Below, in pieces: positions 1 to 21,285 of a DNA stretch of 32,000 nucleotides. Source of the stretch: Nitrososphaera viennensis EN76 (GTDB lineage: Archaea; Thermoproteota; Nitrososphaeria; Nitrososphaerales; Nitrososphaeraceae); NCBI RefSeq assembly GCF_000698785.1, contig NZ_CP007536.1:1170001-1202000 (forward strand), given 5' to 3'. Position numbers and translations under genes: made by a program. Every line of letters starts with the position of its first letter. Position 1 is the first letter of the stretch. The notes under the pieces are model-generated. The model was not told where the DNA came from, did not search any database, and worked only from the letters and a program-made list of their open reading frames with translations.

Positions 1-397
1 CGTCCAGTACGAACACAGACCTCTTTGCAGCGTTGTAGTCGGGCATGCTTGCCAGCTTTTTCATGACGATGCCGTACTTTTTGATGACCTTTCTCCCATA
101 GTCGGAAAGCACGGGGAAGTTCAGGTGATGGTTGTTGGCAAAGGCCTTGTTGACGAACGGCCCGTCGACAGAGATACCAAGCACGTTTGCGCCATAGTCC
201 CGGAGCTCGTCAAGCGAGTCGCGGATTACGCACATTTCCGCCGTGCAGACCGGCGACTCGGCTGCAGGAAAGAATGCAAGTATTGTCTTTTTGCCTCTGA
301 ATTCGCTCAGCTTGCGGTTCTTCATATCCTGGTCCGGGAGTTCAAAGTCAGGGGCCTTTTGGCCTATCTTAACAGATGATGACTTGGCTGCTGCCAT
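1..397 (-). CDS. Peroxiredoxin of the Bcp/AhpC-TSA thioredoxin-fold family (C-terminal part runs off the window)
   Basis: I translated the minus strand from the ATG at complement 395-397: MAAAKSSSVKIGQKAPDFELPDQDMKNRKLSEFRGKKTILAFFPAAESPVCTAEMCVIRD... It has the PDFxL and FFPaa-SPVCT peroxidatic-Cys motifs. It is missing from the ORF track because no stop codon lies inside the window. Confidence 0.8.
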   Translation of the reverse strand, partial: MAAAKSSSVKIGQKAPDFELPDQDMKNRKLSEFRGKKTILAFFPAAESPVCTAEMCVIRDSLDELRDYGANVLGISVDGPFVNKAFANNHHLNFPVLSDYGRKVIKKYGIVMKKLASMPDYNAAKRSVFVLD

Positions 398-445: not shown

Positions 446-1633
446 TCAGGTGTAGTATTTGGATTTAAAGGGCGAAAGCGAGCGCAGTTCCTTTACCACG
501 CCTGCAAGCGCAGACACCGTCCTGTCCATCTCCTCTTTCGTGTTCTGCATCGACAGGCTGATGCGAAGCGAGCCGGTTATCTCCTCGTAGGAAAAGCCCA
601 TCGCCTTCAGCACGTGCGACGGCTTTTGCTTCTTGACCGAGCAGGCCGAGCCTGTGGACGCGGCAATCCCGTCTTCGTCCAGCTTTATTATCAGGTCCTC
701 CCCGTTTACCCCAAAGAAAGTGAAATGCGCGTTTGGAGCAAGCCGGTTTGTTTTAGAGCCGTTGAGCCTGCTGTGCGGGATTTCCGACAGGACCTTTTCA
801 ATCAGGTAGTCGCGGAGCGCTGACACCTGCCTCTGGTACTCTGGCAGCCGGCCCCCGGCAAGCTCGCACGCCTTTCCAAAGCCGACGATGCCCGGGACGT
901 TTTCGGTGCCCGAGCGCATGGCAGATTCCTGCCCGCCGCCGTGGATTATCGGCATTATCTCCAGCCCGTCGCGGATGTACAGCGCCCCGACGCCTTTGGG
1001 CCCGTTTATCTTGTGCGACGACATTGAAAGCAGGTCGACTCCAAGGTCCCTGACGTCAACCGGCATCTTGCCGGCGGCCTGCACCGCGTCGGTGTGAAAG
1101 AGGGCGCCGGCGTCGTGCGCAATCCGGGCAAGCTCCTTTACCGGCTGGATGGTGCCCACCTCGTTGTTTGCGTGCATGATGCTGACAAGCGCTGTCGAGG
1201 GCGTGATCGCCCCCTTGAGGTCCTCCGGCCTCACCAGCCCTTCCTGAGTGACCGGCAGAAACGTCACGCTGTAGCCCAGCCTTTCAAGGTCGCGGCATGG
1301 CTCTAGCACGGCGTCGTGCTCGATGTAGCTTGTTATCACGTGGTTTTTTGACGGGTCCTTGCTTCTCGCATAGTCGGCTGTCCCCTTGATCGCAAGGTTG
1401 TCGGCCTCTGTGCCGCCCGACGTGAACGTTATCTCTTGCGGCTTTGCAGCGCCCACAAGGCCGGCGACGCGCTTTCTTGCAAGCTGTATCGCCCGCGTCG
1501 CCTCCCTGCCAAAGTAGTGTATTGAAGAGGGATTGCCAAACTGCTGTTTCAGGTACGGGATCATTTCCTGTATCACCTCGTCTGCGACGGGAGTCGACGC
1601 CGCGCTGTCAAGGTAGATTCGTTGTTCTGTCAA
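446..1633 (-). CDS. iscS: Cysteine desulfurase, class V aminotransferase (NifS/IscS type)
   Basis: 395-aa ORF. It has the PLP-lysine motif SSHKINGPKG, the active-site loop STGSACS, and a GGTEADN region. Its TTG start (1631-1633) overlaps the stop of the upstream larE-like gene. Confidence 0.9.
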   Translation of the reverse strand: MTEQRIYLDSAASTPVADEVIQEMIPYLKQQFGNPSSIHYFGREATRAIQLARKRVAGLVGAAKPQEITFTSGGTEADNLAIKGTADYARSKDPSKNHVITSYIEHDAVLEPCRDLERLGYSVTFLPVTQEGLVRPEDLKGAITPSTALVSIMHANNEVGTIQPVKELARIAHDAGALFHTDAVQAAGKMPVDVRDLGVDLLSMSSHKINGPKGVGALYIRDGLEIMPIIHGGGQESAMRSGTENVPGIVGFGKACELAGGRLPEYQRQVSALRDYLIEKVLSEIPHSRLNGSKTNRLAPNAHFTFFGVNGEDLIIKLDEDGIAASTGSACSVKKQKPSHVLKAMGFSYEEITGSLRISLSMQNTKEEMDRTVSALAGVVKELRSLSPFKSKYYT

Positions 1634-2442
1634 TCGACCACCGCCAGCTTGCCGCTCTTGCCATATCCGGAAGCGTCTATCGTCACAAAGCGGAACCCCA
1701 GCTCCTTCAGCTTCTTGTCCAGCAATTCCAGTTTTTCAGGGTCAAACATCCTGCCCAGCTCATCCCTTCCCACCTCGATCCTTGCGATCTCGCCGTGGTC
1801 CCTGACCCGCACCTGCCTGACCCCGAATATCGACTTGACTATTATCTCCGAGCTCTCTATCTTGCGCAGCTTTTCGTACGTGACTTCCATGCCCGTCGGT
1901 ATCCTTGACGCGAGGCACGCGTTTGACGGCTTGTCGTACACGGACAGCCCGAACTCTTTTGCCATCCTGCGGATCTCGGCCTTGTCGATGCCAAGCTCCA
2001 CCATCGGGCTTTTCACGCCGTTTTCGCGAAGCGCCCTGATGCCGGGCCGGTAGTCAGACAGGTCGTCGACATTCGTGCCGTCCACTATCAGCTGTGCGCC
2101 GGTTCTTTTCGCCTCGTCTGCGAGGTGCTGGCCAAGCTCTGTACGGCAGTGGTAGCAGCGCAGATTGTCGTTTTTCACGAATTCAGGGTTTTCAAGCTCG
2201 TCGTACTCTATTACCAGATGCTTGATGCCGATCTCGTGCGCGACCCTCCGGGCAGTGGCAAGCTCCTCGTCCGCAAGCGTCTTGTAGTCTGCCGTTATTG
2301 CAATGGCGTTGTCGCCGAGCGCCTTTTTTGCGGCAAGCGCGACCACCGCGCTGTCGACGCCGCCTGACAGGGCGACAATCGCTCTGCTGCCTGCGGGGAA
2401 CCACGAAACCAGCCGGTCAAATGAAGTTGTTGTCGCCGTCAT
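1630..2442 (-). CDS. larE: LarE-like PP-loop ATP-dependent sulfur transferase (nickel-pincer cofactor biosynthesis), Cys-triad (probable Fe-S) subtype
   Basis: 270-aa ORF. It has the PP-loop SGGVDS at residues 26-31, CYHC at Cys96/Cys99, and SNACLASRIP at Cys176. The start/stop overlaps are ATGA with larC and TTGA with the desulfurase. Confidence 0.8.
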   Translation of the reverse strand: MTATTTSFDRLVSWFPAGSRAIVALSGGVDSAVVALAAKKALGDNAIAITADYKTLADEELATARRVAHEIGIKHLVIEYDELENPEFVKNDNLRCYHCRTELGQHLADEAKRTGAQLIVDGTNVDDLSDYRPGIRALRENGVKSPMVELGIDKAEIRRMAKEFGLSVYDKPSNACLASRIPTGMEVTYEKLRKIESSEIIVKSIFGVRQVRVRDHGEIARIEVGRDELGRMFDPEKLELLDKKLKELGFRFVTIDASGYGKSGKLAVVD

Positions 2443-3674
2443 GTCTTGGACGCCACCTGCGCGTTTACGATCTCCAGCACGCGCCTTGCAGGCATATCAA
2501 GCCTTGCGGCGATTATCTTGATGTCCTCAAACTCGGGCTTGGCCCCAATGGTGTTTCCCTGCGCGTCCTTGGCCACCTTCACGTGCACGTTAAAGGTGTT
2601 ATCGCCTATTGTCACGGGCACCGTCACCACGGCCCGCGGGAGGATGTAGCGCTCCACCTGCTGTACGCGCGCGCCGAGCGTGCCCGACTCTGAAAACAGG
2701 ATGGAAAGCACCGCGTTCAGCAGGGAATTGTCTGCGATTACCCTGACAAGGTACGTGGGCCTGCTCTTTTTCGTGATGCCGGGTATTATTGTCACGTCCT
2801 TGGCGCCGGCGTCCGTCAGCCTGTCGACAAGGTTGCCCATCACCTCGCCTGTTGTGTCGTCGACGTTTGTTTCCACGACGCAGACGGCGTCCTTCTCAAG
2901 TGCCACCGGCGAATCGCCTACAAGGACGCGGACGACGTTGGCAAAACCTGTAAACTTTTTGCTGCCTGCGCCATAGCCGATTTTTTCCGGCACGATTGAC
3001 GGGTAATAGTCGACGCTTCCCTCTGCCAGGTTTGCAAGTAGCGCCGCTCCCGTGGGCGTCGTCAGCTCCTCCTTTGCCTGGCCGCCGGCAAGCGCAAAGC
3101 GCCTGCCCTGAAATATGTGCAGAATAGCGTCGGCAGGGTTTGGCACGGTGCCGTGCGAAAACGTCAGCTTGCCCCCGCCCACCGCCACCTGCGTAGACAC
3201 TATTTTCGAGCCAAGAAGAGAAAGGTCCTGAAGGGCAGTGGCGCAACCTACGATATCTGCAAGCGTGTCCACGCTGGACGCCTCGTGCAGGTGCACGTTG
3301 TTGAAATCCTCGCCGTGGATCTTGGCCTCGGCCGAGATTATCGTCTTTATGGTGTCAAGCGCAAACGCCTTTGCCCTCTGCTCAAGGCCGAGCGCGTCGC
3401 AGGTTTTTGTGAGCGCGCGCACCATCTCTGCGCCCTTGCGCTCGTGCGCGCCGTCCTTGTACTCCAGCTTTAGCTGCGTCGCCGAAAAGCCGTGTGTCAC
3501 TATTTTTTCAAAAGAGGCATTGCTTATCCTGCTGCCCTTCAGGCTGTCCTGGCATGCAAATATGGCGTCCTGCACCTTTTTTGCGCTGGCGCCGGCGTCC
3601 ACCAGCGCGGACGTCAGCATGTCCCCTGCGATGCCTGCCACCTGGCAGTCAATGACAGCTAGCTTCCTTGCCAT
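2439..3674 (-). CDS. larC: LarC-like nickel insertion protein (DUF111 family, NPN cofactor cyclometallase)
   Basis: 411-aa ORF. The N-terminus, LAVIDCQVAGIAGDMLTSALVDAGA, matches the characteristic DUF111/LarC opening (D-x-x-x-G-x-x-GDM). The length is typical. It is coupled to larE by a 4-nt overlap. Confidence 0.85.
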   Translation of the reverse strand: MARKLAVIDCQVAGIAGDMLTSALVDAGASAKKVQDAIFACQDSLKGSRISNASFEKIVTHGFSATQLKLEYKDGAHERKGAEMVRALTKTCDALGLEQRAKAFALDTIKTIISAEAKIHGEDFNNVHLHEASSVDTLADIVGCATALQDLSLLGSKIVSTQVAVGGGKLTFSHGTVPNPADAILHIFQGRRFALAGGQAKEELTTPTGAALLANLAEGSVDYYPSIVPEKIGYGAGSKKFTGFANVVRVLVGDSPVALEKDAVCVVETNVDDTTGEVMGNLVDRLTDAGAKDVTIIPGITKKSRPTYLVRVIADNSLLNAVLSILFSESGTLGARVQQVERYILPRAVVTVPVTIGDNTFNVHVKVAKDAQGNTIGAKPEFEDIKIIAARLDMPARRVLEIVNAQVASKT

Positions 3675-3703: not shown

Positions 3704-3714
3704 CTTTATAATAT
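3704..3714 (-). promoter_or_regulatory. TATA-box candidate for the larC-larE-iscS operon (minus-strand ATATTATAAAG)
   Basis: The A/T-rich element is centred about 34 nt upstream of the larC ATG (3674). Confidence 0.45.
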
Positions 3715-3948: not shown

Positions 3949-4305
3949 ATGGACACGCCAAGGGAGCTTGAATGGTACCTGCGCGACCACTTTTTCAGGC
4001 AGGCAGGAAAGGGCAGGACGCAGTTCCAGAGGAGCGCCATTGCCGGCGAGATGACAAGCCTGTACCTGCGCTATCGCGGATATGACCCGCAGCAGCTCGA
4101 AGAAAGCATGTCCCCTGTGATAGACGACCTTGTGTCGATGCAGATATTGAGACAGTCAGGGGACAGCCTGGAGGTCGCAGGCGCCCTTGTACGCATGCAG
4201 TGCGCAAAGTGCTTTTACGTCAGCTACCTCCTTGCAGAAAAAGAGCCAAAGACGTGCCAGCGCTGTTCAGGGACGGAACTTCACGAGTTCCCAAAGCGCA
4301 AGTAG
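3949..4305 (+). CDS. Hypothetical protein with a C-terminal CxxC...CxxC zinc ribbon (possible small DNA-binding regulator)
   Basis: 118-aa ORF whose C-terminus has CAKC-x19-CQRC. The N-terminal helical part could be wHTH-like, which is inference. Confidence 0.7.
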   Translation: MDTPRELEWYLRDHFFRQAGKGRTQFQRSAIAGEMTSLYLRYRGYDPQQLEESMSPVIDDLVSMQILRQSGDSLEVAGALVRMQCAKCFYVSYLLAEKEPKTCQRCSGTELHEFPKRK

Positions 4306-4377
4306 GTAAATGAGCGAATGAACCAAGCTTATTAAGCAAGTTTTCCCCTTACCCGGGCGTTGCCCGGCCTCGACGAG

Positions 4378-4719
4378 ATGTGCAAAAAGGTGTTTGCTGT
4401 GGACCCTGCCATCAGGTTTGCCGGCGTGATAGACAGGATGGGCAAGCTTGTGGCAGGAGGCATGCGCGACGGGGTAAGCCCGCTAGAATCCATAAAGGAC
4501 ATGGACAAGCTGTACATCGAGTTTGCGCTCCGAAACGCCATGCGTAAAGAGTTCAACGTGGACTTTGGCAAGACCATTTTCACGTTTTCTGAAAGGGAGC
4601 GGATAAAGCTGGCGACGTTTCCGCTGAAAGACGACGATGACAGCCTTTTGCTCGTCTCCATCGAAAAGGACAAGCCCCACGACAAAATAATAAGCGGGAT
4701 ACTGGCAGTCGTACGCTGA
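4378..4719 (+). CDS. Hypothetical protein, tentatively Roadblock/LC7-like fold
   Basis: The ORF-track entry 4360..4719 starts at a TTG, and the first in-frame ATG is at 4378. The pattern IRFAGVIDRMGKLVAGG...LLLVSIEKD resembles Roadblock/MglB-type small domains. This is a weak call. Confidence 0.6.
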   Translation: MCKKVFAVDPAIRFAGVIDRMGKLVAGGMRDGVSPLESIKDMDKLYIEFALRNAMRKEFNVDFGKTIFTFSERERIKLATFPLKDDDDSLLLVSIEKDKPHDKIISGILAVVR

Positions 4720-4970
4720 TGCCCGGCACCAGCAGAAGAAGAAGAAAACGCTCGCGAAGAGGAGAAGACGACGACCTTGTCCCGCCGCGTAAGATAACCG
4801 GCAAAGAGCTGACAGAGCTTGAAGAGCTGAGCGCAAGGCTCACCGCGCTCGTGGAGATGCTTGACGAAAAGGGCGTCATCAACAAAAAAGAGTACGGCCG
4901 CACCGTGGCGATGCGCCTGCACGAAATATCCAAGGCAGCGGCGATTGAAGAGCTGGACGAGGAACTCTAA
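4719..4970 (+). CDS. Small (83 aa) protein with an Arg-rich N-terminus and an acidic helical C-terminus
   Basis: Its ATG overlaps the upstream stop (ATGA at 4716-4721). The sequence is MPGTSRRRRKRSRRGEDDD...LTELEELSARLTALVEMLDEKG. The next gene follows after 2 nt. Confidence 0.6.
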   Translation: MPGTSRRRRKRSRRGEDDDLVPPRKITGKELTELEELSARLTALVEMLDEKGVINKKEYGRTVAMRLHEISKAAAIEELDEEL

Positions 4971-4972
4971 CC

Positions 4973-5674
4973 ATGCAGGCGCAAAAGGCGTTTTCCCTTG
5001 CCATCATCGCAGGGATTATTGGCGGCGCGCTCATGGCGGCGATCAATTTTACCATAGTGCAGGCCCGGCAGAGCGAGATCGCGGATTTCTATGCCGACGA
5101 GTTTGTCGCGCCGGGCATAATTGACGAGGGCGAATTTGACCAAAAGCTGCAAGAGCTGCAGCTGCAGAACGTCGCGCTGCCGGTTGCAACAGGCGTGGCG
5201 GGAGGCGCGCTTGTCGCCGCGGTGTACCTGAGGGCTGGCGCCGGCGCCTTCAAGGTGGCCCTTGCGGTTGCCGGCGCGGCGTGGCTTGCGCTCTATGTCA
5301 TGCCGGCAATAAAGTACCCGGCAAACCCGGACACTGTCTTTAACCCGGAAGGCGACGGCGGGTATTCCATGCTCTACACAGGCTACGCCGCCGCGTCCGG
5401 GCTTGCCGCCCTTGGCTCGGCAATAGCGTTTTCAAGGACTGGCAGAAAGAACTGGTACTTTGGGGCCGCTGGCCTGTACGTCGGCATAATAGCCGCGCTC
5501 TATGTCGCATTCCCGGCCTTTTCCGGCCTGGAATTTGTGCCCCAGCAGTTGCTTGCAGGGTGGCGCTCTTCGATGGCCGCAGGCACGACCGCGCTGTGGT
5601 TTGCGCTTGGAATAATCGCAGGCGCCCTGCTGGAGCGCGAAGAAAAGAAGAAAATTGCCGGGAGAGGGATTTGA
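4973..5674 (+). CDS. Multi-pass membrane protein (about 6 hydrophobic segments), function unknown
   Basis: 233-aa Ala/Gly-rich ORF with repeated hydrophobic stretches of about 20 aa. It has a faint resemblance to CbtA-type metal transporter subunits but no His-rich loop, so I do not assert that assignment. Confidence 0.75.
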   Translation: MQAQKAFSLAIIAGIIGGALMAAINFTIVQARQSEIADFYADEFVAPGIIDEGEFDQKLQELQLQNVALPVATGVAGGALVAAVYLRAGAGAFKVALAVAGAAWLALYVMPAIKYPANPDTVFNPEGDGGYSMLYTGYAAASGLAALGSAIAFSRTGRKNWYFGAAGLYVGIIAALYVAFPAFSGLEFVPQQLLAGWRSSMAAGTTALWFALGIIAGALLEREEKKKIAGRGI

Positions 5675-6223: not shown

Positions 6224-6326
6224 TGGCGCCGGGAGAGGGATTTGAACCCTCGGGACCCTTACGGGTCACAAGCTGGCTGGATGAATTTTTCCAGGCTTGC
6301 GCCCTCCCGGGCTAGGCGACCCCGGC
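6224..6326 (-). tRNA. tRNA-Ser (anticodon GGA) with a 14-nt intron at the canonical 37/38 position and an encoded CCA
   Basis: I folded it by hand from the minus strand. The parts are acceptor GCCGGGG/TCCCGGC (one G-U), D arm GCCT-AGCCCGGGA-GGGC, and anticodon stem CAAGC/GCTTG with loop CTGGAA[AAATTCATCCAGCC]A. There is a long variable arm GACCC-GTAA-GGGTC (class II), T arm GAGGG-TTCAAAT-CCCTC, discriminator G, then CCA. Confidence 0.9.
6275..6288 (-). other. tRNA-Ser intron (about 14 nt; boundaries ambiguous by 1-3 nt because of an A-run)
   Basis: The intron contains TCCAG, complementary to CTGGA of the anticodon loop. A splicing-endonuclease bulge-helix-bulge-type helix is expected to have this pairing. 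Confidence 0.75.
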
Positions 6327-13224: not shown

Positions 13225-14016
13225 TTAACGGGTCTGCCTCGTCGCAGACTTGGCAACAGACGCTGCAAACGCGCCGGCGCCCACTCCGTTGTCGATGTTG
13301 ACCACCGCAAGGCCAAGCGTGCAGCTCTGCAGCATCGACGCAAGCGCTGCGATGCCGTCCGCGCCAAAGCCATAGCCCACCGACGTCGGGACGCCCACCA
13401 CCGGGACGTCAACCATCGACGCGACCACCGACGCAAGCGCCCCTTCCATGCCTGCCACCACCACTATTGCACCCACCTTTTTTGCGAGCATCTCCTTGAG
13501 AGATGGAAACACCCTGTGCATGCCGGCTATCCCGATGTCATAGCTTGTGATGGTGTCGCAGCCCATCGCCTCTGCCACCAGCCGCGCCTCTTCTGCTACG
13601 CCAATGTCAGAAGTGCCGGCGGCCATTATCCCCACCCTGCCGAGCGCCTTCTCCTTTTGTTGTTTTTGCGACTTGGTATTTGCAACAATGATCGTGGTGC
13701 TGTTCCTGCCCACCTCTACTGAAAGGCCCTTTTTCTTTAGTGCAGAGACGAGTTTTGCCAGATCCTTCTTTTTCACCCTGCTCACCACCACCCGGCCGTT
13801 GCGCTTGACTGCTGCCTGCGCGATCCGGAGCGTGTCGGCGTACTCCTTTCTCTCTGCAAAGACTATCTCGGGCAGGCCCTTTCTCATCTCCCGGCCTACG
13901 TCCAGCTTGGCAATGTTGTCGACGTGCTCTATTGCATGGATAGAGATCTCTTTCTGCGCCTCCTCCGCGGTTATCGCTCCCTTGGCGAATTTCTCAAGGA
14001 TGGTGCGCAGATCCAA
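13225..14016 (-). CDS. larB: LarB-like NaAD carboxylase/hydrolase (PurE/AIR-carboxylase fold; NPN cofactor biosynthesis)
   Basis: 263-aa ORF with the N-terminal helical domain ILEKFAKGAITAEEAQKEI. The PurE-like core has GRVGIMAAGTSDIGVAEEA and VVVAGMEGALASVVA. It has a TTG start. Confidence 0.85.
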   Translation of the reverse strand: MDLRTILEKFAKGAITAEEAQKEISIHAIEHVDNIAKLDVGREMRKGLPEIVFAERKEYADTLRIAQAAVKRNGRVVVSRVKKKDLAKLVSALKKKGLSVEVGRNSTTIIVANTKSQKQQKEKALGRVGIMAAGTSDIGVAEEARLVAEAMGCDTITSYDIGIAGMHRVFPSLKEMLAKKVGAIVVVAGMEGALASVVASMVDVPVVGVPTSVGYGFGADGIAALASMLQSCTLGLAVVNIDNGVGAGAFAASVAKSATRQTR

Positions 14017-14486: not shown

Positions 14487-15401
14487 TCAGAGCGGGAGCG
14501 CCTTTATCGCTTCCCTGACGCTTGCCACGCCCTTGTCAAAGACGCCCTGCTCAAAGCTGTCAAGCTTGAGCTCGACTATCTTCTCCACGCCGCCTGCGCC
14601 AATGACTGCCGGCACGCCGATGCACAGGTCAGAGACTCCGTACTGGCCGTCAAGGTACGCGGACACTGGTATCACCATTTTCTTGTCCTTTGCCATCGAC
14701 TCGATCATGGTGGCGACCGCGTTGCCCGGCGCGTACACTGTCGCGCCCTTTAGCGCGATTACCTCTGCGGCAACTTTTTTCGTCTTTTCAAAAATGTCTG
14801 TCGCCTGCTCTTTTGTGATAAAGTCGTGCAGCGGGATTCCGCCCAGCGAGGAAAATCGGGTGAGCGGGAGCATGTTCTCGCCGTGCTCTGATATGACCAT
14901 CGCCTGTATCGAGTCGCGAGAGACGCCCGTTGCCTCCTGTATGTAGCTCTTGAACCTCGACAGGTCGAGCATGCCCCCCATGCCCATCACCTTGCTCTTT
15001 TGCGCGCCGATGGTCTTGAGCGCAAGGTAGGTCATCGGGTCAAGCGGGTTGGTAACGACAATGACAGTCGCGTCCTTGGCGTACGTCGCTATTTTCGACG
15101 CGACGTCTTTTACAATGCCGGCGTTTATCTTTAGCAAGTCCATGCGGGTCATGCCCGGCTTTCTGCCGACGCCGGCGACAAGCACGACATAGTCAGAGCC
15201 GCGCATGTCCTCGTAGTTGTTAGAGCCCCGGGCGACAGAGTCAGAGCCCCGCTCCGACAGCTGGTGGTTGATGTCCATTGCCTCGCCCTGCGGAAGGCCC
15301 TGCACTATATCCAGAAGAAGAATGTCGTCAAGCTCTCTCAGGCCGCAGTTCAGTGCGGCCGAGGCGCCCACTTTGCCTGATCCGATTACGGTTATTGTCA
15401 T
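14487..15401 (-). CDS. mdh: Malate dehydrogenase (LDH-like MDH family)
   Basis: 304-aa ORF with the Rossmann motif [10 protein letters not shown]. The substrate-loop [10 protein letters not shown] carries Arg where LDHs have Gln. The catalytic region is SEHGENM. Confidence 0.9.
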
Positions 15402-16121: not shown

Positions 16122-17456
16122 GTGCCTCCCCGGATAGAGCTGCAGAGCAGGAAAAAGTGGACCGTAAACGGCACCTCAAGGATAAGGCCGGCCCAGGAAA
16201 CCCTGCAAAAGGTCGTTCCGCTCTCCAAAAAGATAGGGGTCACCAGGCTTGCAGACATTACGGACATGGACGTGCTCCGGATACCAAACTATTCGGCAGT
16301 CCTGCCCGGCACCGAGGACTACATCTGGGTGTACAGCGGCAAGGGCCCAACGAGGGAGCACGCGATGGCAAGCGCGCTGATGGAGAGCATCGAGCGCTAT
16401 TCCTCACTGCCTGCAGGAGGCCCGCGGAACTTTGTCAGGGCAAGCTATGCAGAGCTGTCAAAATCCCGCAAAGTATTGCACCCTGACGAGATCGTCGAGC
16501 CGATGCGCTTTGAGTACCGCGACGACATGCCGATGGACTTTCTCCCCGGCTTTGACATCGCCAACGATAATGAAGAGGTTATGGTTCCGGCATCAATCGC
16601 GCTTTTCCGCTACAACCCGCCGGCGCCGGCGGTAAACCCGTTTTCATACTTTCACACAAACGGCCTTGCGTCCGGCAACGTTATAGAAGAAGCCATATGC
16701 CATTCGCTCTGCGAGGTTATAGAGCGCGACGCAATGAGCGTGGCGGAACTGCGCGCAAGCGCGATTCCCTTCCACGTGCTCCGGAGCATCATCCACTCGC
16801 TCAACGCGGCAGGCATGCACACAAGGCCGGTGCAGGCCGACAGGTTCGTCGACGATCCTGGCGTTTTTCCGGACGTCGACATTTCCGAAGTCGAGTTTGA
16901 GCCCGTCAGAAAACTTGTCAAGAAATTCGAGAAAGCAGGCATCCCGCTCATAATAAAGGACATCACGTCTGACATTGGCGTCCCCACTTTCAATGCAAGC
17001 AGCATCGAGTGGGTCACGCACGACTATGGCTACCTTGCAGAAGGCCATGGCACGCACCCCGACGCAAGGATTGCCCTTTTGAGGGCGATAACGGAGGTGT
17101 CGCAGACTCGCGCCGCCAACATCCAGGGAGCGCGAGACGACCTGCGCAAGATAAGGTACGGCGAGAACAACACTGACGACAAGAGGGCGTGGCAGTTCAT
17201 GCCATCGACCAGGAAAATAAAGTTCTCAGATGTAAAAACGTACTTTCACGAGGACATACTTGACGACATCAGGTTCATACTTGGCAGGCTAGGAAACGCC
17301 GGCCTTGACAGGGCGATAATCGTCGACCTGACAAACCCGGACCTTGCGATCCCGGTCGTCAGGGCTATTGTGCCGGGGCTGGAGACGTTCAAGATAACAA
17401 AGTCGGTGATGGGAATGAGAGCGAGGGCGCTTTTCAGGCAATGGCAAAGCCAATAA
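16122..17456 (+). CDS. ycaO: YcaO-domain protein (ATP-dependent peptide backbone amide activation; TfuA-associated thioamidation subtype)
   Basis: 444-aa ORF with a GTG start. It has SYFHTNGLASGN and the ATP/Mg-binding SLCEVIERDAMS motif. Its end overlaps the tfuA start by 16 nt. Confidence 0.9.
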   Translation: MPPRIELQSRKKWTVNGTSRIRPAQETLQKVVPLSKKIGVTRLADITDMDVLRIPNYSAVLPGTEDYIWVYSGKGPTREHAMASALMESIERYSSLPAGGPRNFVRASYAELSKSRKVLHPDEIVEPMRFEYRDDMPMDFLPGFDIANDNEEVMVPASIALFRYNPPAPAVNPFSYFHTNGLASGNVIEEAICHSLCEVIERDAMSVAELRASAIPFHVLRSIIHSLNAAGMHTRPVQADRFVDDPGVFPDVDISEVEFEPVRKLVKKFEKAGIPLIIKDITSDIGVPTFNASSIEWVTHDYGYLAEGHGTHPDARIALLRAITEVSQTRAANIQGARDDLRKIRYGENNTDDKRAWQFMPSTRKIKFSDVKTYFHEDILDDIRFILGRLGNAGLDRAIIVDLTNPDLAIPVVRAIVPGLETFKITKSVMGMRARALFRQWQSQ

Positions 17457-18124
17457 TAATATTCCTCGGCCCAAGCCTGAGCCACGAAAAGGCAAGAAAG
17501 ATTCTGCCGGAAGCCGAGTTTCGGCCGCCGGCCAAAAAGGGCGACCTTCTGAGGCTGGCTGCAAGCCCTGACGTCTCGATGGTCGGGCTTGTGGACGGCG
17601 TGTTCCTGCAGGACTACCCTCCCACGCCGATCGAAGTCTATCAGTTAGCAAGGCGAGAAGGCGTCCTTTTAGCAGGGGCGGCAAGCCTCGGCGCGCTGCG
17701 CGCAGTCGAACTGGAAAAGTTTGGCATGGTAGGCATCGGCAGGGTGTTTGAGCTGTACAAGAGCGGCAAGATAGACGCCGACGACGAGGTCGCAGTCACG
17801 TTTGCAGACGGCGATTTTCATCTCCAGTCAGAGGCGATGGTGGACATACGCTACAACCTGTTCCTTGCGCACAAAAGAGGCATCATCGGCAAGGACACGA
17901 AAAAAGTGCTGGCAAAAGTCGCAAAGGGCACCTATTTCCCGCACCGCAACTACCCGGACATCATCGAGGCGGCGAGGCAGAAATACCGCGATGACAGCCT
18001 GCATGATGACATCGACGCCTTCCAGGCCTACATCGAGAAAAACAGAAAGAGCCTGAAGGAGATGGACGCAATCAAGCTGGTCGAGTTTTTCAGGGCCCGC
18101 CTTGAAGCAACAGAAAAGAAATGA
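17441..18124 (+). CDS. tfuA: TfuA-like protein (partner of thioamide-forming YcaO)
   Basis: 227-aa ORF. The sequence IIIFLGPSL...FRPPAKKGDLLRL...VGLVDGVFLQDYPPTPIEV...GAASLGALRA is the typical TfuA domain signature. Confidence 0.9.
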   Translation: MAKPIIIFLGPSLSHEKARKILPEAEFRPPAKKGDLLRLAASPDVSMVGLVDGVFLQDYPPTPIEVYQLARREGVLLAGAASLGALRAVELEKFGMVGIGRVFELYKSGKIDADDEVAVTFADGDFHLQSEAMVDIRYNLFLAHKRGIIGKDTKKVLAKVAKGTYFPHRNYPDIIEAARQKYRDDSLHDDIDAFQAYIEKNRKSLKEMDAIKLVEFFRARLEATEKK

Positions 18125-20037: not shown

Positions 20038-21285
20038 TTGGCAGCAGGCAAACATGAGCAAGAGATCGAGGTCAGGGGACACCTCATCGACTCGATGATA
20101 CTAACAAGGATATTTGACCACGTCATGGACCTAAAAGGCGACTTTCAGGTTCTCGAGTTCACGGTAGGCAAGAAAAAGAAAGACCCAAGCTACGCCCGCC
20201 TGCTCGTGCGCGGCAAGGACGAAGAGCACCTTGAGCGCATAATAGAGGCCGTGTACCGCGAGGGCGCGCAGCCCGTCTCGGTGCAGGAGGCAATGCTCGT
20301 CCCCGCAAGCAGCGACTGCGTAATGCCCGACGACTTTTACAGCACGACCAACAACCCCACTCAGGTCTTTTACGCAGGCCAGTGGATACAGGTCCAGAAC
20401 ATGATGATGGACAAGTGCATAGTTGTCGACACAAGGAGCAAGACCGCAGAATGCAAGATGATCCGCGACCTGAAAAAAGGCGACATGATAGTCGTGGGCG
20501 AGCGCGGCGTGAAAATAACGCCGCAGGAGCGCCCGAGAGAAGGGGTCGACATTTTCCAGTTCATGTCAAGCTCCAGTTCCAGCGAGCGCCCCACGCAGCA
20601 TATCGCCCGCAAGGTTGCAGACGACATCTACAACACCAAAAAACAAGGCGGCAAGATAATCGTGGTTTCAGGCCCCGTGCTCGTGCATTCCGGCGCGTCG
20701 GAAGCGCTTGCGCGCCTTATCAGGATGGGCTACATCGACGGCCTGCTAGCAGGAAACGCCATTGCTGTCCACGATGTTGAGAACGCACTCCTTGGCACAT
20801 CGCTTGGCATGCACGTCAGGGACGGCACGCTTGCAGTCAGGGGCCACCGCAACCACATGCAGGCCATAAACGAGGTGTTCAAGGCGGGCGGCCTGAGGGC
20901 GATGGTCGAGAAAAAGATCCTGAAAAGCGGCGTGATGTACGAGTGCATAAAAAACGACGTCCCGTTCGTACTTGCAGGCTCTATACGTGACGATGGCCCG
21001 ATACCCGACGTCGTGACTGACGTGGTGGAGGCGCAGCGCAGGTACAAAAAGGTGCTAAAGGGCGCAAGGATGGTGCTGATGTTCTCGACTATGCTCCACT
21101 CTATCGCGGTGGGCAACATGCTTCCCTCGTCGGTAAAGGTGGTGGCAGTCGACATCAGCCAACCCGTCGTGACAAAGCTGGTGGACAGGGGGACGGCGCA
21201 GGCAGTCGGCATCGTGACGGACGTCGGCGCGTTCTTGCCCATAGTCGCGGACCACCTTGAAAAGATGGCAAGGCACAGGCAGTAG
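20038..21285 (+). CDS. TIGR00300-type protein (LOR/SDH conserved-region family; some members are annotated as archaeal ornithine cyclodeaminase)
   Basis: 415-aa ORF. The opening EIEVRGHLIDSMILTRIFDHVMDLKGDFQVLEFTVGK is as I remember for this archaeal family. The functional label is from memory and uncertain. Confidence 0.75.
   Translation: MAAGKHEQEIEVRGHLIDSMILTRIFDHVMDLKGDFQVLEFTVGKKKKDPSYARLLVRGKDEEHLERIIEAVYREGAQPVSVQEAMLVPASSDCVMPDDFYSTTNNPTQVFYAGQWIQVQNMMMDKCIVVDTRSKTAECKMIRDLKKGDMIVVGERGVKITPQERPREGVDIFQFMSSSSSSERPTQHIARKVADDIYNTKKQGGKIIVVSGPVLVHSGASEALARLIRMGYIDGLLAGNAIAVHDVENALLGTSLGMHVRDGTLAVRGHRNHMQAINEVFKAGGLRAMVEKKILKSGVMYECIKNDVPFVLAGSIRDDGPIPDVVTDVVEAQRRYKKVLKGARMVLMFSTMLHSIAVGNMLPSSVKVVAVDISQPVVTKLVDRGTAQAVGIVTDVGAFLPIVADHLEKMARHRQ

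Follow-up and report, generated by a model that had tools for sequence, protein, structure and literature searches.

Where does LarE, the sulfur-inserting enzyme of nickel-pincer nucleotide synthesis, obtain its sulfur in an ammonia-oxidising archaeon? The question is raised by three adjacent genes, larC, larE and a cysteine desulfurase gene, found in a stretch of 32,000 nucleotides from Nitrososphaera viennensis EN76 (contig NZ_CP007536.1, positions 1,170,001 to 1,202,000 of the forward strand). This whole stretch is called the window below, and coordinates given without a locus label are positions in it. The arrangement and the motifs of the three genes suggest an answer that is held to be fairly probable: the co-translated desulfurase would be a built-in sulfur supply for a catalytic [4Fe-4S] LarE in a three-gene operon. 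Enzymes of these types are known, as is the mechanism of sulfur transfer, which has been described for Thermotoga; among archaea, a [4Fe-4S] LarE has already been documented in Methanococcus maripaludis (PMC8961635). What seems to have gone undescribed is the operon as found in the ammonia-oxidising archaea (AOA): larC-larE-desulfurase, translationally coupled, clade-wide and equipped with a desulfurase subfamily of its own. In the literature open to searching, no paper was found that connects lar genes with the AOA.

Organisation of the operon

The three genes lie on the minus strand. The operon begins with larC (2439-3674), which encodes 411 amino acids and starts with ATG, continues with larE (1630-2442; 270 amino acids, ATG start), and ends with the gene of a class I cysteine desulfurase (446-1633; 395 amino acids, TTG start). 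The TGA stop codon of larC and the ATG start codon of larE share the tetranucleotide ATGA (2439-2442, minus strand; TCAT on the plus strand). In the same manner, the TGA stop of larE and the TTG start of the desulfurase gene share TTGA (1630-1633, minus strand; TCAA on the plus strand). An earlier note on this DNA had described three minus-strand genes joined by these two overlaps, and its coordinates and strand agree with the present reading. The TTG is the sole start codon in the desulfurase open frame ahead of the invariant N-terminal motif IYLDxAA; a start at the next methionine, M24, would remove this motif.

Both junctions are found again in relatives, whose loci, recovered for the most part in the larE-side and desulfurase-side collection scans described below, are labelled L001 and so on. 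The larC/larE overlap of 4 nucleotides (nt) also occurs in L001, L003, L005, L008, L010 and L012. The TTGA overlap between larE and the desulfurase gene is present in L009, L010 (Nitrosotalea), L011 (Nitrosopumilus) and L012, and takes the form GTGA in L013; in L001, L005 and L006 the desulfurase gene begins immediately after larE or 2 nt beyond it. Location on one strand, stop/start overlaps, zero internal intergenic space and a layout that is kept in relatives characterise larC-larE-desulfurase as a translationally coupled operon, and the three genes are likely to be co-transcribed.

Upstream of larC, at 3705-3714, the minus strand carries a TATA-like element, ATATTATAAA, at a distance of 31-40 nt from the start codon. 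It might be the archaeal promoter of the larC operon, in which case the leader would be very short. At the other end, 48 nt downstream of the desulfurase gene, lies the partial gene of an AhpC/TSA peroxiredoxin (1-397, minus strand; PF00578, 1e-35). Within these 48 nt there is a TTTTTAT, also TATA-like, some 29 nt ahead of the peroxiredoxin ATG, and the peroxiredoxin gene probably has a promoter of its own. This gene follows the lar operon in all Nitrososphaeraceae loci, though not in Nitrosopumilales, where the gene after the desulfurase is convergent. It is because of the probable separate promoter and of the convergent gene in Nitrosopumilales that the operon is taken to comprise three genes.

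LarC and LarE

In profile searches, the larC product matches PF01969 over residues 7-399 (360.9 bits) and the NCBIfam models LarC1 (157.5 bits, residues 88-252) and LarC2 (120.1 bits, residues 264-386), all above cut-off. By these matches it can be identified as a full-length CTP-dependent nickel insertase of the LarC family (PF01969/TIGR00299 plus NF052512), in which LarC1, the nickel domain, and LarC2, the CTP domain, are fused in one polypeptide.

The larE product scores 283 bits with TIGR00268, for which the cut-off is 150. Its PP-loop motif SGGxDS is S26-GGVDS31, and S26, G27, G28, D30 and S31 are invariant in an alignment of five sequences. The protein has exactly three cysteines, C96 and C99 in RCYHCR and C176 in NACLASR. 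Its phmmer matches among solved structures are 5udq (2e-35), which is LarE of Lactobacillus plantarum, and 8cnz (7e-27), which carries a generic molecule name in the Protein Data Bank (PDB) and which we take to be LarE of M. maripaludis. RC96YHC99R aligns with RCYNCK of 8cnz, where L. plantarum has SWYYAK, and NAC176LASR aligns with DTCMATR of 8cnz, so that the position of the third cysteine is identical. Relative to Cys176 of L. plantarum, the third cysteine is displaced by one residue in the sequence alignment, and the same one-residue shift has been reported for LarE of Thermotoga maritima (PMC9283937). [quoted passage not shown] The alignment with 5udq and 8cnz shows no variation at R212 and R214; S179 occupies the Ser180 position, which is kept in four of the five aligned sequences and is Thr in M. 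maripaludis. The larE product is a PP-loop ATP-dependent sulfur insertase of the CxxC...C type, presumably with a [4Fe-4S] cluster.

The PP-loop and the cysteines that the earlier note had read in LarE are thus present, the latter as the only three in the protein, and the assignment of Cys96 and Cys99 to cluster-ligand positions is borne out by the CxxC of 8cnz, as is that of Cys176 by its DTCMATR cysteine. The same note had seen in the operon, with its desulfurase wired to a catalytic LarE, a signature of a non-sacrificial pathway. The triad itself is real and correctly placed, but it is not distinctive: it occurs in 81 of 81 LarEs from diverse bacteria and archaea whose PP-loop or motif could be located. 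Most LarE homologues are also reported to carry it (PMC9283937). The triad is the majority state of LarE and not a special feature.

The desulfurase and its relatives

The product of the third gene has the class V aminotransferase fold (PF00266, 307.7 bits). It passes the IscS-subfamily model NF002806 (329.7 vs 304 bits), stays just below the NifS equivalog TIGR03402 (514.3 vs 530.75 bits) and lies far below the IscS equivalog TIGR02006 (393 vs 643 bits). As the broad model NF002806 is the only one passed, the enzyme is filed as a class I desulfurase and not as NifS or IscS proper. SufS models score it far lower, with 209 bits as against 514 for NifS. The lysine that binds pyridoxal phosphate (PLP) is found in the motif S205-S-H-K208, of which H207 and K208 are invariant in 12 sequences. 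The catalytic loop has the class I motif STGSAC331-S, with C331 invariant, and not the class II motif RxGHHCA. Both SSHK208 and STGSAC331 are invariant among the AOA orthologues, and the best PDB matches are IscS/NifS-type enzymes. Motifs and profile scores together identify the protein as a class I (group I, IscS/NifS-type) PLP-dependent cysteine desulfurase, and the NifS/IscS-type enzyme predicted in the earlier note fits this class.

The 15 archaeal enzymes linked to LarE group together, to the exclusion of all others, in a neighbour-joining tree built from 92 desulfurases; each of 40 bootstraps recovers this clade. The nearest non-archaeal relatives are 51-55% identical, and their genes are followed by genes for NifU_N (L089, L093, L097) or MnmA (L093, L094), located at L089:4980-5396, L093:5302-6855, L094:4966-6027 and L097:5178-5570. 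No NifU_N/IscU scaffold gene was found flanking the desulfurase gene in the window or in any AOA locus, and without such a neighbour the AOA enzyme is not counted as part of an ISC or NIF assembly system. The archaeal clade looks like a NifS/IscS that has changed its partner.

The published inventory of AOA genomes lists a SUF system with multicopy group II sufS/csd genes, and a single group I iscS family (arCOG00066) that was gained in the last common ancestor of the AOA (Abby et al. 2020, PMC7554672 supplement). Its SSHK and STGSAC motifs, like its profile scores, place the window enzyme in group I, and it is therefore that iscS and not the general SUF desulfurase. The separate SUF system with sufS in this inventory rules out that the desulfurase is the sole general IscS/SufS of the lineage, an objection that the earlier note had foreseen. 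Sulfur acceptors are specific in the case of class II desulfurases, whereas an enzyme of class I has several partners, which it serves by means of a flexible catalytic loop (PMC8300815).

Conservation of the linkage

The best 120 LarE homologues listed from the protein database all belong to Nitrososphaera (74-95% identical, the closest 93-95%). This set was too narrow, and the broad sampling therefore comes from two collection scans. The first, on the larE side, searched GTDB by pattern, with one genome for each species, and gave 80 LarE loci from many phyla, onto which the window proteins were mapped by tblastn. The second, on the desulfurase side, used aligned archaeal desulfurases to search metagenomes and gave another 80 loci. 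A locus entered the linkage count only if larE had 1.5 kb or more on each side of it.

The order larC, larE, desulfurase on one strand is found in Nitrososphaeraceae, Nitrosotalea, Nitrosopumilus and two Nitrosopumilaceae. The desulfurase gene directly follows larE in 8 of 10 AOA GTDB loci, as compared with 1 of 61 other LarE loci (Fisher p = 3.7e-8), and it does so likewise in the window and in L001/L002, two contigs of an 85%-identical relative. Overlaps of 4 nt are commonplace in the window, where they also join EMC3/adk, L30/S5 and S5/L18; it is the adjacency of the genes, unlike the overlap, that is strongly non-random across genomes. The adjacency whose conservation the earlier note had proposed to check is thus kept across AOA orders. 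Seen from the desulfurase side, larE is the gene directly upstream in all five loci with an identity of at least 57%, and only two of the 75 loci at 47-55% identity have it nearby. In Bathyarchaeia and in one non-ammonia-oxidising Nitrososphaeria genome no desulfurase gene was found by larE; larB and larC are often present there.

Independent pairs of larE and a desulfurase gene occur in bacteria (L053, L081, L098 and L151). In an uncultured bacterium (L053, 1026-2965) an Aminotran_5 protein of a different subfamily is encoded in reversed gene order, its gene overlapping the larE start by 4 nt. In an Isosphaeraceae genome (L081, 4632-6813) the desulfurase gene lies 88-166 nt upstream of larE, the distance varying with the larE start chosen, and in L098:17-2050 the two genes are divergent.

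The layout of the wider region can be followed through the AOA. In L006, L007, L009-L013, L085 and L087 the ancestral order is seen, with mdh (a malate dehydrogenase gene), larB and ribosomal-protein genes running in one direction and larC, larE and iscS running divergently in the other. Synteny across the AOA extends over the whole of this region, from the ribosomal-protein genes to larB and mdh. In the lineage of the window, the trio now lies at the opposite end of the ribosomal block, having been relocated by about 10 kb; it is still intact and stands apart from mdh-larB.

Possible mechanism of sulfur supply

By combining the gene order with the biochemistry of characterised LarE proteins, it is possible to describe how the AOA system might work. 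The three conserved cysteines of T. maritima LarE bind a [4Fe-4S] cluster, and the enzyme is catalytic when supplied with L-cysteine and Escherichia coli IscS (PMC9283937). [quoted passage not shown] Sulfide and iron do not make this LarE catalytic, and the enzyme keeps all of its side-chain sulfur (PMC9283937). LarE of M. maripaludis has likewise been treated as [4Fe-4S]-dependent (PMC8961635).

In the AOA, LarB (13225-14016) would make P2CMN from nicotinic acid adenine dinucleotide. LarE would hold a [4Fe-4S] cluster via Cys96, Cys99 and Cys176 and adenylate the substrate carboxylate at its PP-loop. A non-core sulfide on the open iron of the cluster, held by LarE, would then attack the activated carboxylate. 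The desulfurase would move sulfur from free L-cysteine onto its Cys331 as a persulfide and subsequently recharge the LarE cluster, and it probably also helps to build or repair this cluster. In this way LarE would turn over catalytically, sacrificing no cysteine. Two rounds of LarE would give P2TMN, into which LarC would insert nickel with the use of CTP. The reason for the recruitment might be that clusters in these archaea are built by SUF and that SufS serves only its own acceptor, so that a group I enzyme with a flexible loop would be needed for LarE. We infer the cluster binding, the direction of sulfur flow and the reason for the gene arrangement by analogy with known systems.

Alternative roles of the desulfurase

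Several observations weigh against a built-in sulfur supply. In two Nitrososphaeraceae loci (L004:4770-6182 and L008:2641-4040) the desulfurase gene is missing: larC and larE are followed directly by the genes for peroxiredoxin and acetyl/propionyl-CoA carboxylase, in a neighbourhood that is otherwise that of L001. Either the adjacency can be dispensed with, or the gene has been transferred to another place. A desulfurase gene next to larE is absent from most organisms whose LarE has the Cys triad, and in T. maritima both desulfurase genes are far from larE (PMC9283937). The sole group I family of the AOA may also feed tRNA thiolation, thiamine, molybdopterin and YcaO-TfuA. Part of the conserved linkage may be inertia, synteny near the ribosomal-protein cluster decaying slowly. 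Both locus samples were drawn from the first 600 pattern matches listed, which limits the LarE locus sample. Finally, the functions assigned to the AOA proteins are predictions from sequence.

Some of these observations could also be explained if the enzyme were a general group I supplier of sulfur, serving tRNA thiolation, thiamine, molybdopterin and thioamidation alike, with no special relation to LarE and with its position after larE stemming from joint acquisition or fixation near the ribosomal-protein cluster. Such an enzyme would agree with the single group I family listed for the AOA (PMC7554672 supplement), with the several acceptors typical of class I enzymes (PMC8300815), with the two loci that have no desulfurase gene at larE and with the synteny of the whole region from the ribosomal proteins to larB and mdh. 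It would not explain why the stop/start overlap with larE is kept across orders, why the trio moved together in the window lineage, why every AOA-type orthologue sampled sits downstream of larE, or why larE-desulfurase pairs arose independently in unrelated bacteria. The overlap, the joint relocation and the bacterial pairings also weigh against pure inertia, and a purely general function appears unlikely. Another possibility is that the desulfurase mainly assembles or repairs the O2-labile three-Cys [4Fe-4S] cluster, the sulfur of the cofactor coming from elsewhere. The hosts are aerobic, the cluster has an open iron site, M. maripaludis LarE as purified holds less than 5% cluster (PMC8961635), a peroxiredoxin gene follows the operon in Nitrososphaeraceae, and in the nearest outgroups the NifS genes go together with those of NifU scaffolds. 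Against this, no scaffold gene adjoins the desulfurase gene in any AOA locus, and the effect of persulfide in T. maritima described above, which sulfide and iron do not reproduce, is exerted on a LarE that is already loaded with its cluster. Cluster building as the main task is improbable to a similar degree, although the roles of cluster builder and sulfur donor are not mutually exclusive.

It is also conceivable that the sulfur comes from Cys176 of the AOA LarE itself, which would be sacrificed as happens in Lactobacillus, the desulfurase re-sulfurating LarE or being unrelated to it. The fold, the PP-loop and a cysteine near position 176 are common to L. plantarum LarE; the CxxC that is absent from the latter is, however, present here as part of a triad that comprises the only cysteines of the protein, and T. 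maritima LarE with the same motif retains its side-chain sulfur. A sacrificial LarE is therefore very improbable. The view that the desulfurase delivers sulfur to a catalytic-type LarE to which it is wired, put forward in the earlier note, is supported by the conserved linkage and by the alignment of the triad, its function being deduced from sequence. As to the word 'dedicated' in that note, the conserved linkage speaks for it; exclusivity remains a caveat, as the sole group I family may have other clients.

larB, malate dehydrogenase and other genes of the window

The window holds an archaeal block of ribosomal-protein, SecY, adenylate kinase and Cbf5 genes. The larB gene (13225-14016, minus strand; NF033503, 234.7 vs 175 bits) is about 10 kb from larC here and beside larC in most relatives. 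Directly upstream of larB on the same strand lies mdh, the gene of a malate dehydrogenase (MDH) resembling lactate dehydrogenase (14487-15401, minus strand). The same neighbour is found wherever that side of the AOA locus was recovered (L006, L007, L009-L013, L085, L087); in L005 only mdh was detected, and in L004 and L008 neither mdh nor larB. The gap between mdh and larB measures 16-55 nt in relatives, where the pair is divergent from larC, and 470 nt in the window. The two genes are probably co-transcribed.

MDH has GSGKVG, Asp31, Arg80/Arg86 and the catalytic His, passes the MDH subfamily model and represents the single mdh family of the clade. These canonical NAD-binding and catalytic motifs give no evidence that MDH is a nickel-pincer enzyme; a pincer of the adenine-dinucleotide type would be compatible with them. 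No larA was found among the main open reading frames (ORFs) of the window, and a COG survey lists a LarA homologue in 3 of 13 Nitrososphaerota (PMC11770544 Table S1). Pincer enzymes other than LarA have recently been found by neighbourhood analysis (PMC13524815). One might speculate, with considerable doubt, that the AOA lar locus (mdh-larB and larC-larE-iscS) has been a self-contained module since the origin of the clade, that its desulfurase is specific for LarE, and that the pincer cofactor or its adenine-dinucleotide form serves a core enzyme other than LarA, for which MDH would be a candidate.

Next to mdh-larB in this genome is another sulfur-inserting system, YcaO (16122-17456, plus strand) and TfuA (17441-18124, plus strand), whose genes overlap by 16 nt and are followed by that of a PduO-type cobalamin adenosyltransferase. 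The best models for YcaO-TfuA are McrA-glycine thioamidation proteins, below their cut-offs, and the organism has no methyl-coenzyme M reductase. On the other side of larC, and divergent from it in the window and in L001, is a block that ends with a CbtA-like membrane protein, a predicted cobalt transporter subunit (4973-5674, plus strand). Before it come 3949-4305, 4360-4719 and 4719-4970 on the plus strand, encoding a Zn-ribbon-like ORF of 118 amino acids, a DUF6659 protein and an acidic ORF of 83 amino acids, respectively. It is conceivable that this block serves nickel or cobalt supply.

An ORF of 415 amino acids at 20038-21285 (plus strand) is homologous to the C-terminal domain of Anabaena Alr4995 (PDB 6lrh, E = 5e-115) and to 3c2q. 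This domain is presumably of the ornithine-cyclodeaminase type, and ornithine cyclodeaminases with an adenine-dinucleotide nickel-pincer cofactor have reportedly been found (cited in PMC13524815). The ORF is not supported as a client of the nickel-pincer cofactor, as none of 163 loci has a homologue within 6 kb of larE. At 6227-6326 (minus strand) there is a complete Rfam tRNA match of 100 nt and 39 bits that ARAGORN does not call. The match is probably to an archaeal tRNA with an intron.

Comparison with known systems

The natural donor of a [4Fe-4S] LarE has so far been modelled only with the heterologous E. coli IscS, and the AOA offer a genetically paired donor and acceptor. The pairing gives a concrete candidate role to the group I desulfurase gained at the origin of the clade, which had earlier been read only as a help in Fe-S repair. 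It also places a conserved locus for nickel-pincer biosynthesis among the most abundant archaea on Earth, though most of them have no LarA, and the role of the cofactor in nitrifiers becomes open to experiment.

The closest functional parallel is LarE of T. maritima (Chatterjee et al. 2022, PMC9283937), which shares SGGxDS, CxxC...C and the third cysteine shifted by one residue, and by analogy sulfur would be expected to pass from L-cysteine via a class I persulfide onto the cluster. Unlike in T. maritima, with its distant desulfurase genes and its assays with the E. coli enzyme, the donor here comes from the operon itself, from a gene that overlaps larE, and represents a subfamily specific to the clade. 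Unlike the Thermotoga LarE with a fourth, adjacent cysteine, the window LarE has Ala175. LarE of M. maripaludis (PDB 8CNZ/8CP3/8CP4) is also archaeal, is about 30% identical over the full length, and has three cysteines that align exactly with those of the window protein. M. maripaludis is a strict anaerobe, whereas the window organism is aerobic and has the desulfurase fused into the operon. To our knowledge, M. maripaludis has no cysteine desulfurase and uses sulfide. L. plantarum LarE (PDB 5UDQ) has in common with the window protein the family, the PP-loop and the phosphate-binding Ser/Arg; it differs in having W97/A100 in place of C96/C99, a single catalytic cysteine that is consumed, and no cluster.

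MnmA, ThiI and LarE are all PP-loop ATPases. Bacillus subtilis resembles the AOA in that its clusters are made by SUF/SufS and that extra class I desulfurases are assigned one to each thiolation enzyme, YrvO to MnmA for s2U and NifZ to ThiI (PMC8300815). The nearest non-AOA relatives of the window desulfurase similarly adjoin MnmA or NifU. The acceptors in B. subtilis belong to tRNA thiolation, whereas the acceptor here would be LarE, an enzyme of cofactor biosynthesis. The AOA locus shares with the canonical lar operons (larA-E of Lactobacillus; larB/C/E of bacteria and Bathyarchaeia) the adjacency of larC and larE and the divergent larB. In the Bathyarchaeia loci L022, L025, L026 and L079, larB is divergent from larC and larE, without mdh. 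Unlike these operons, the AOA add the desulfurase gene after larE and mdh before larB.

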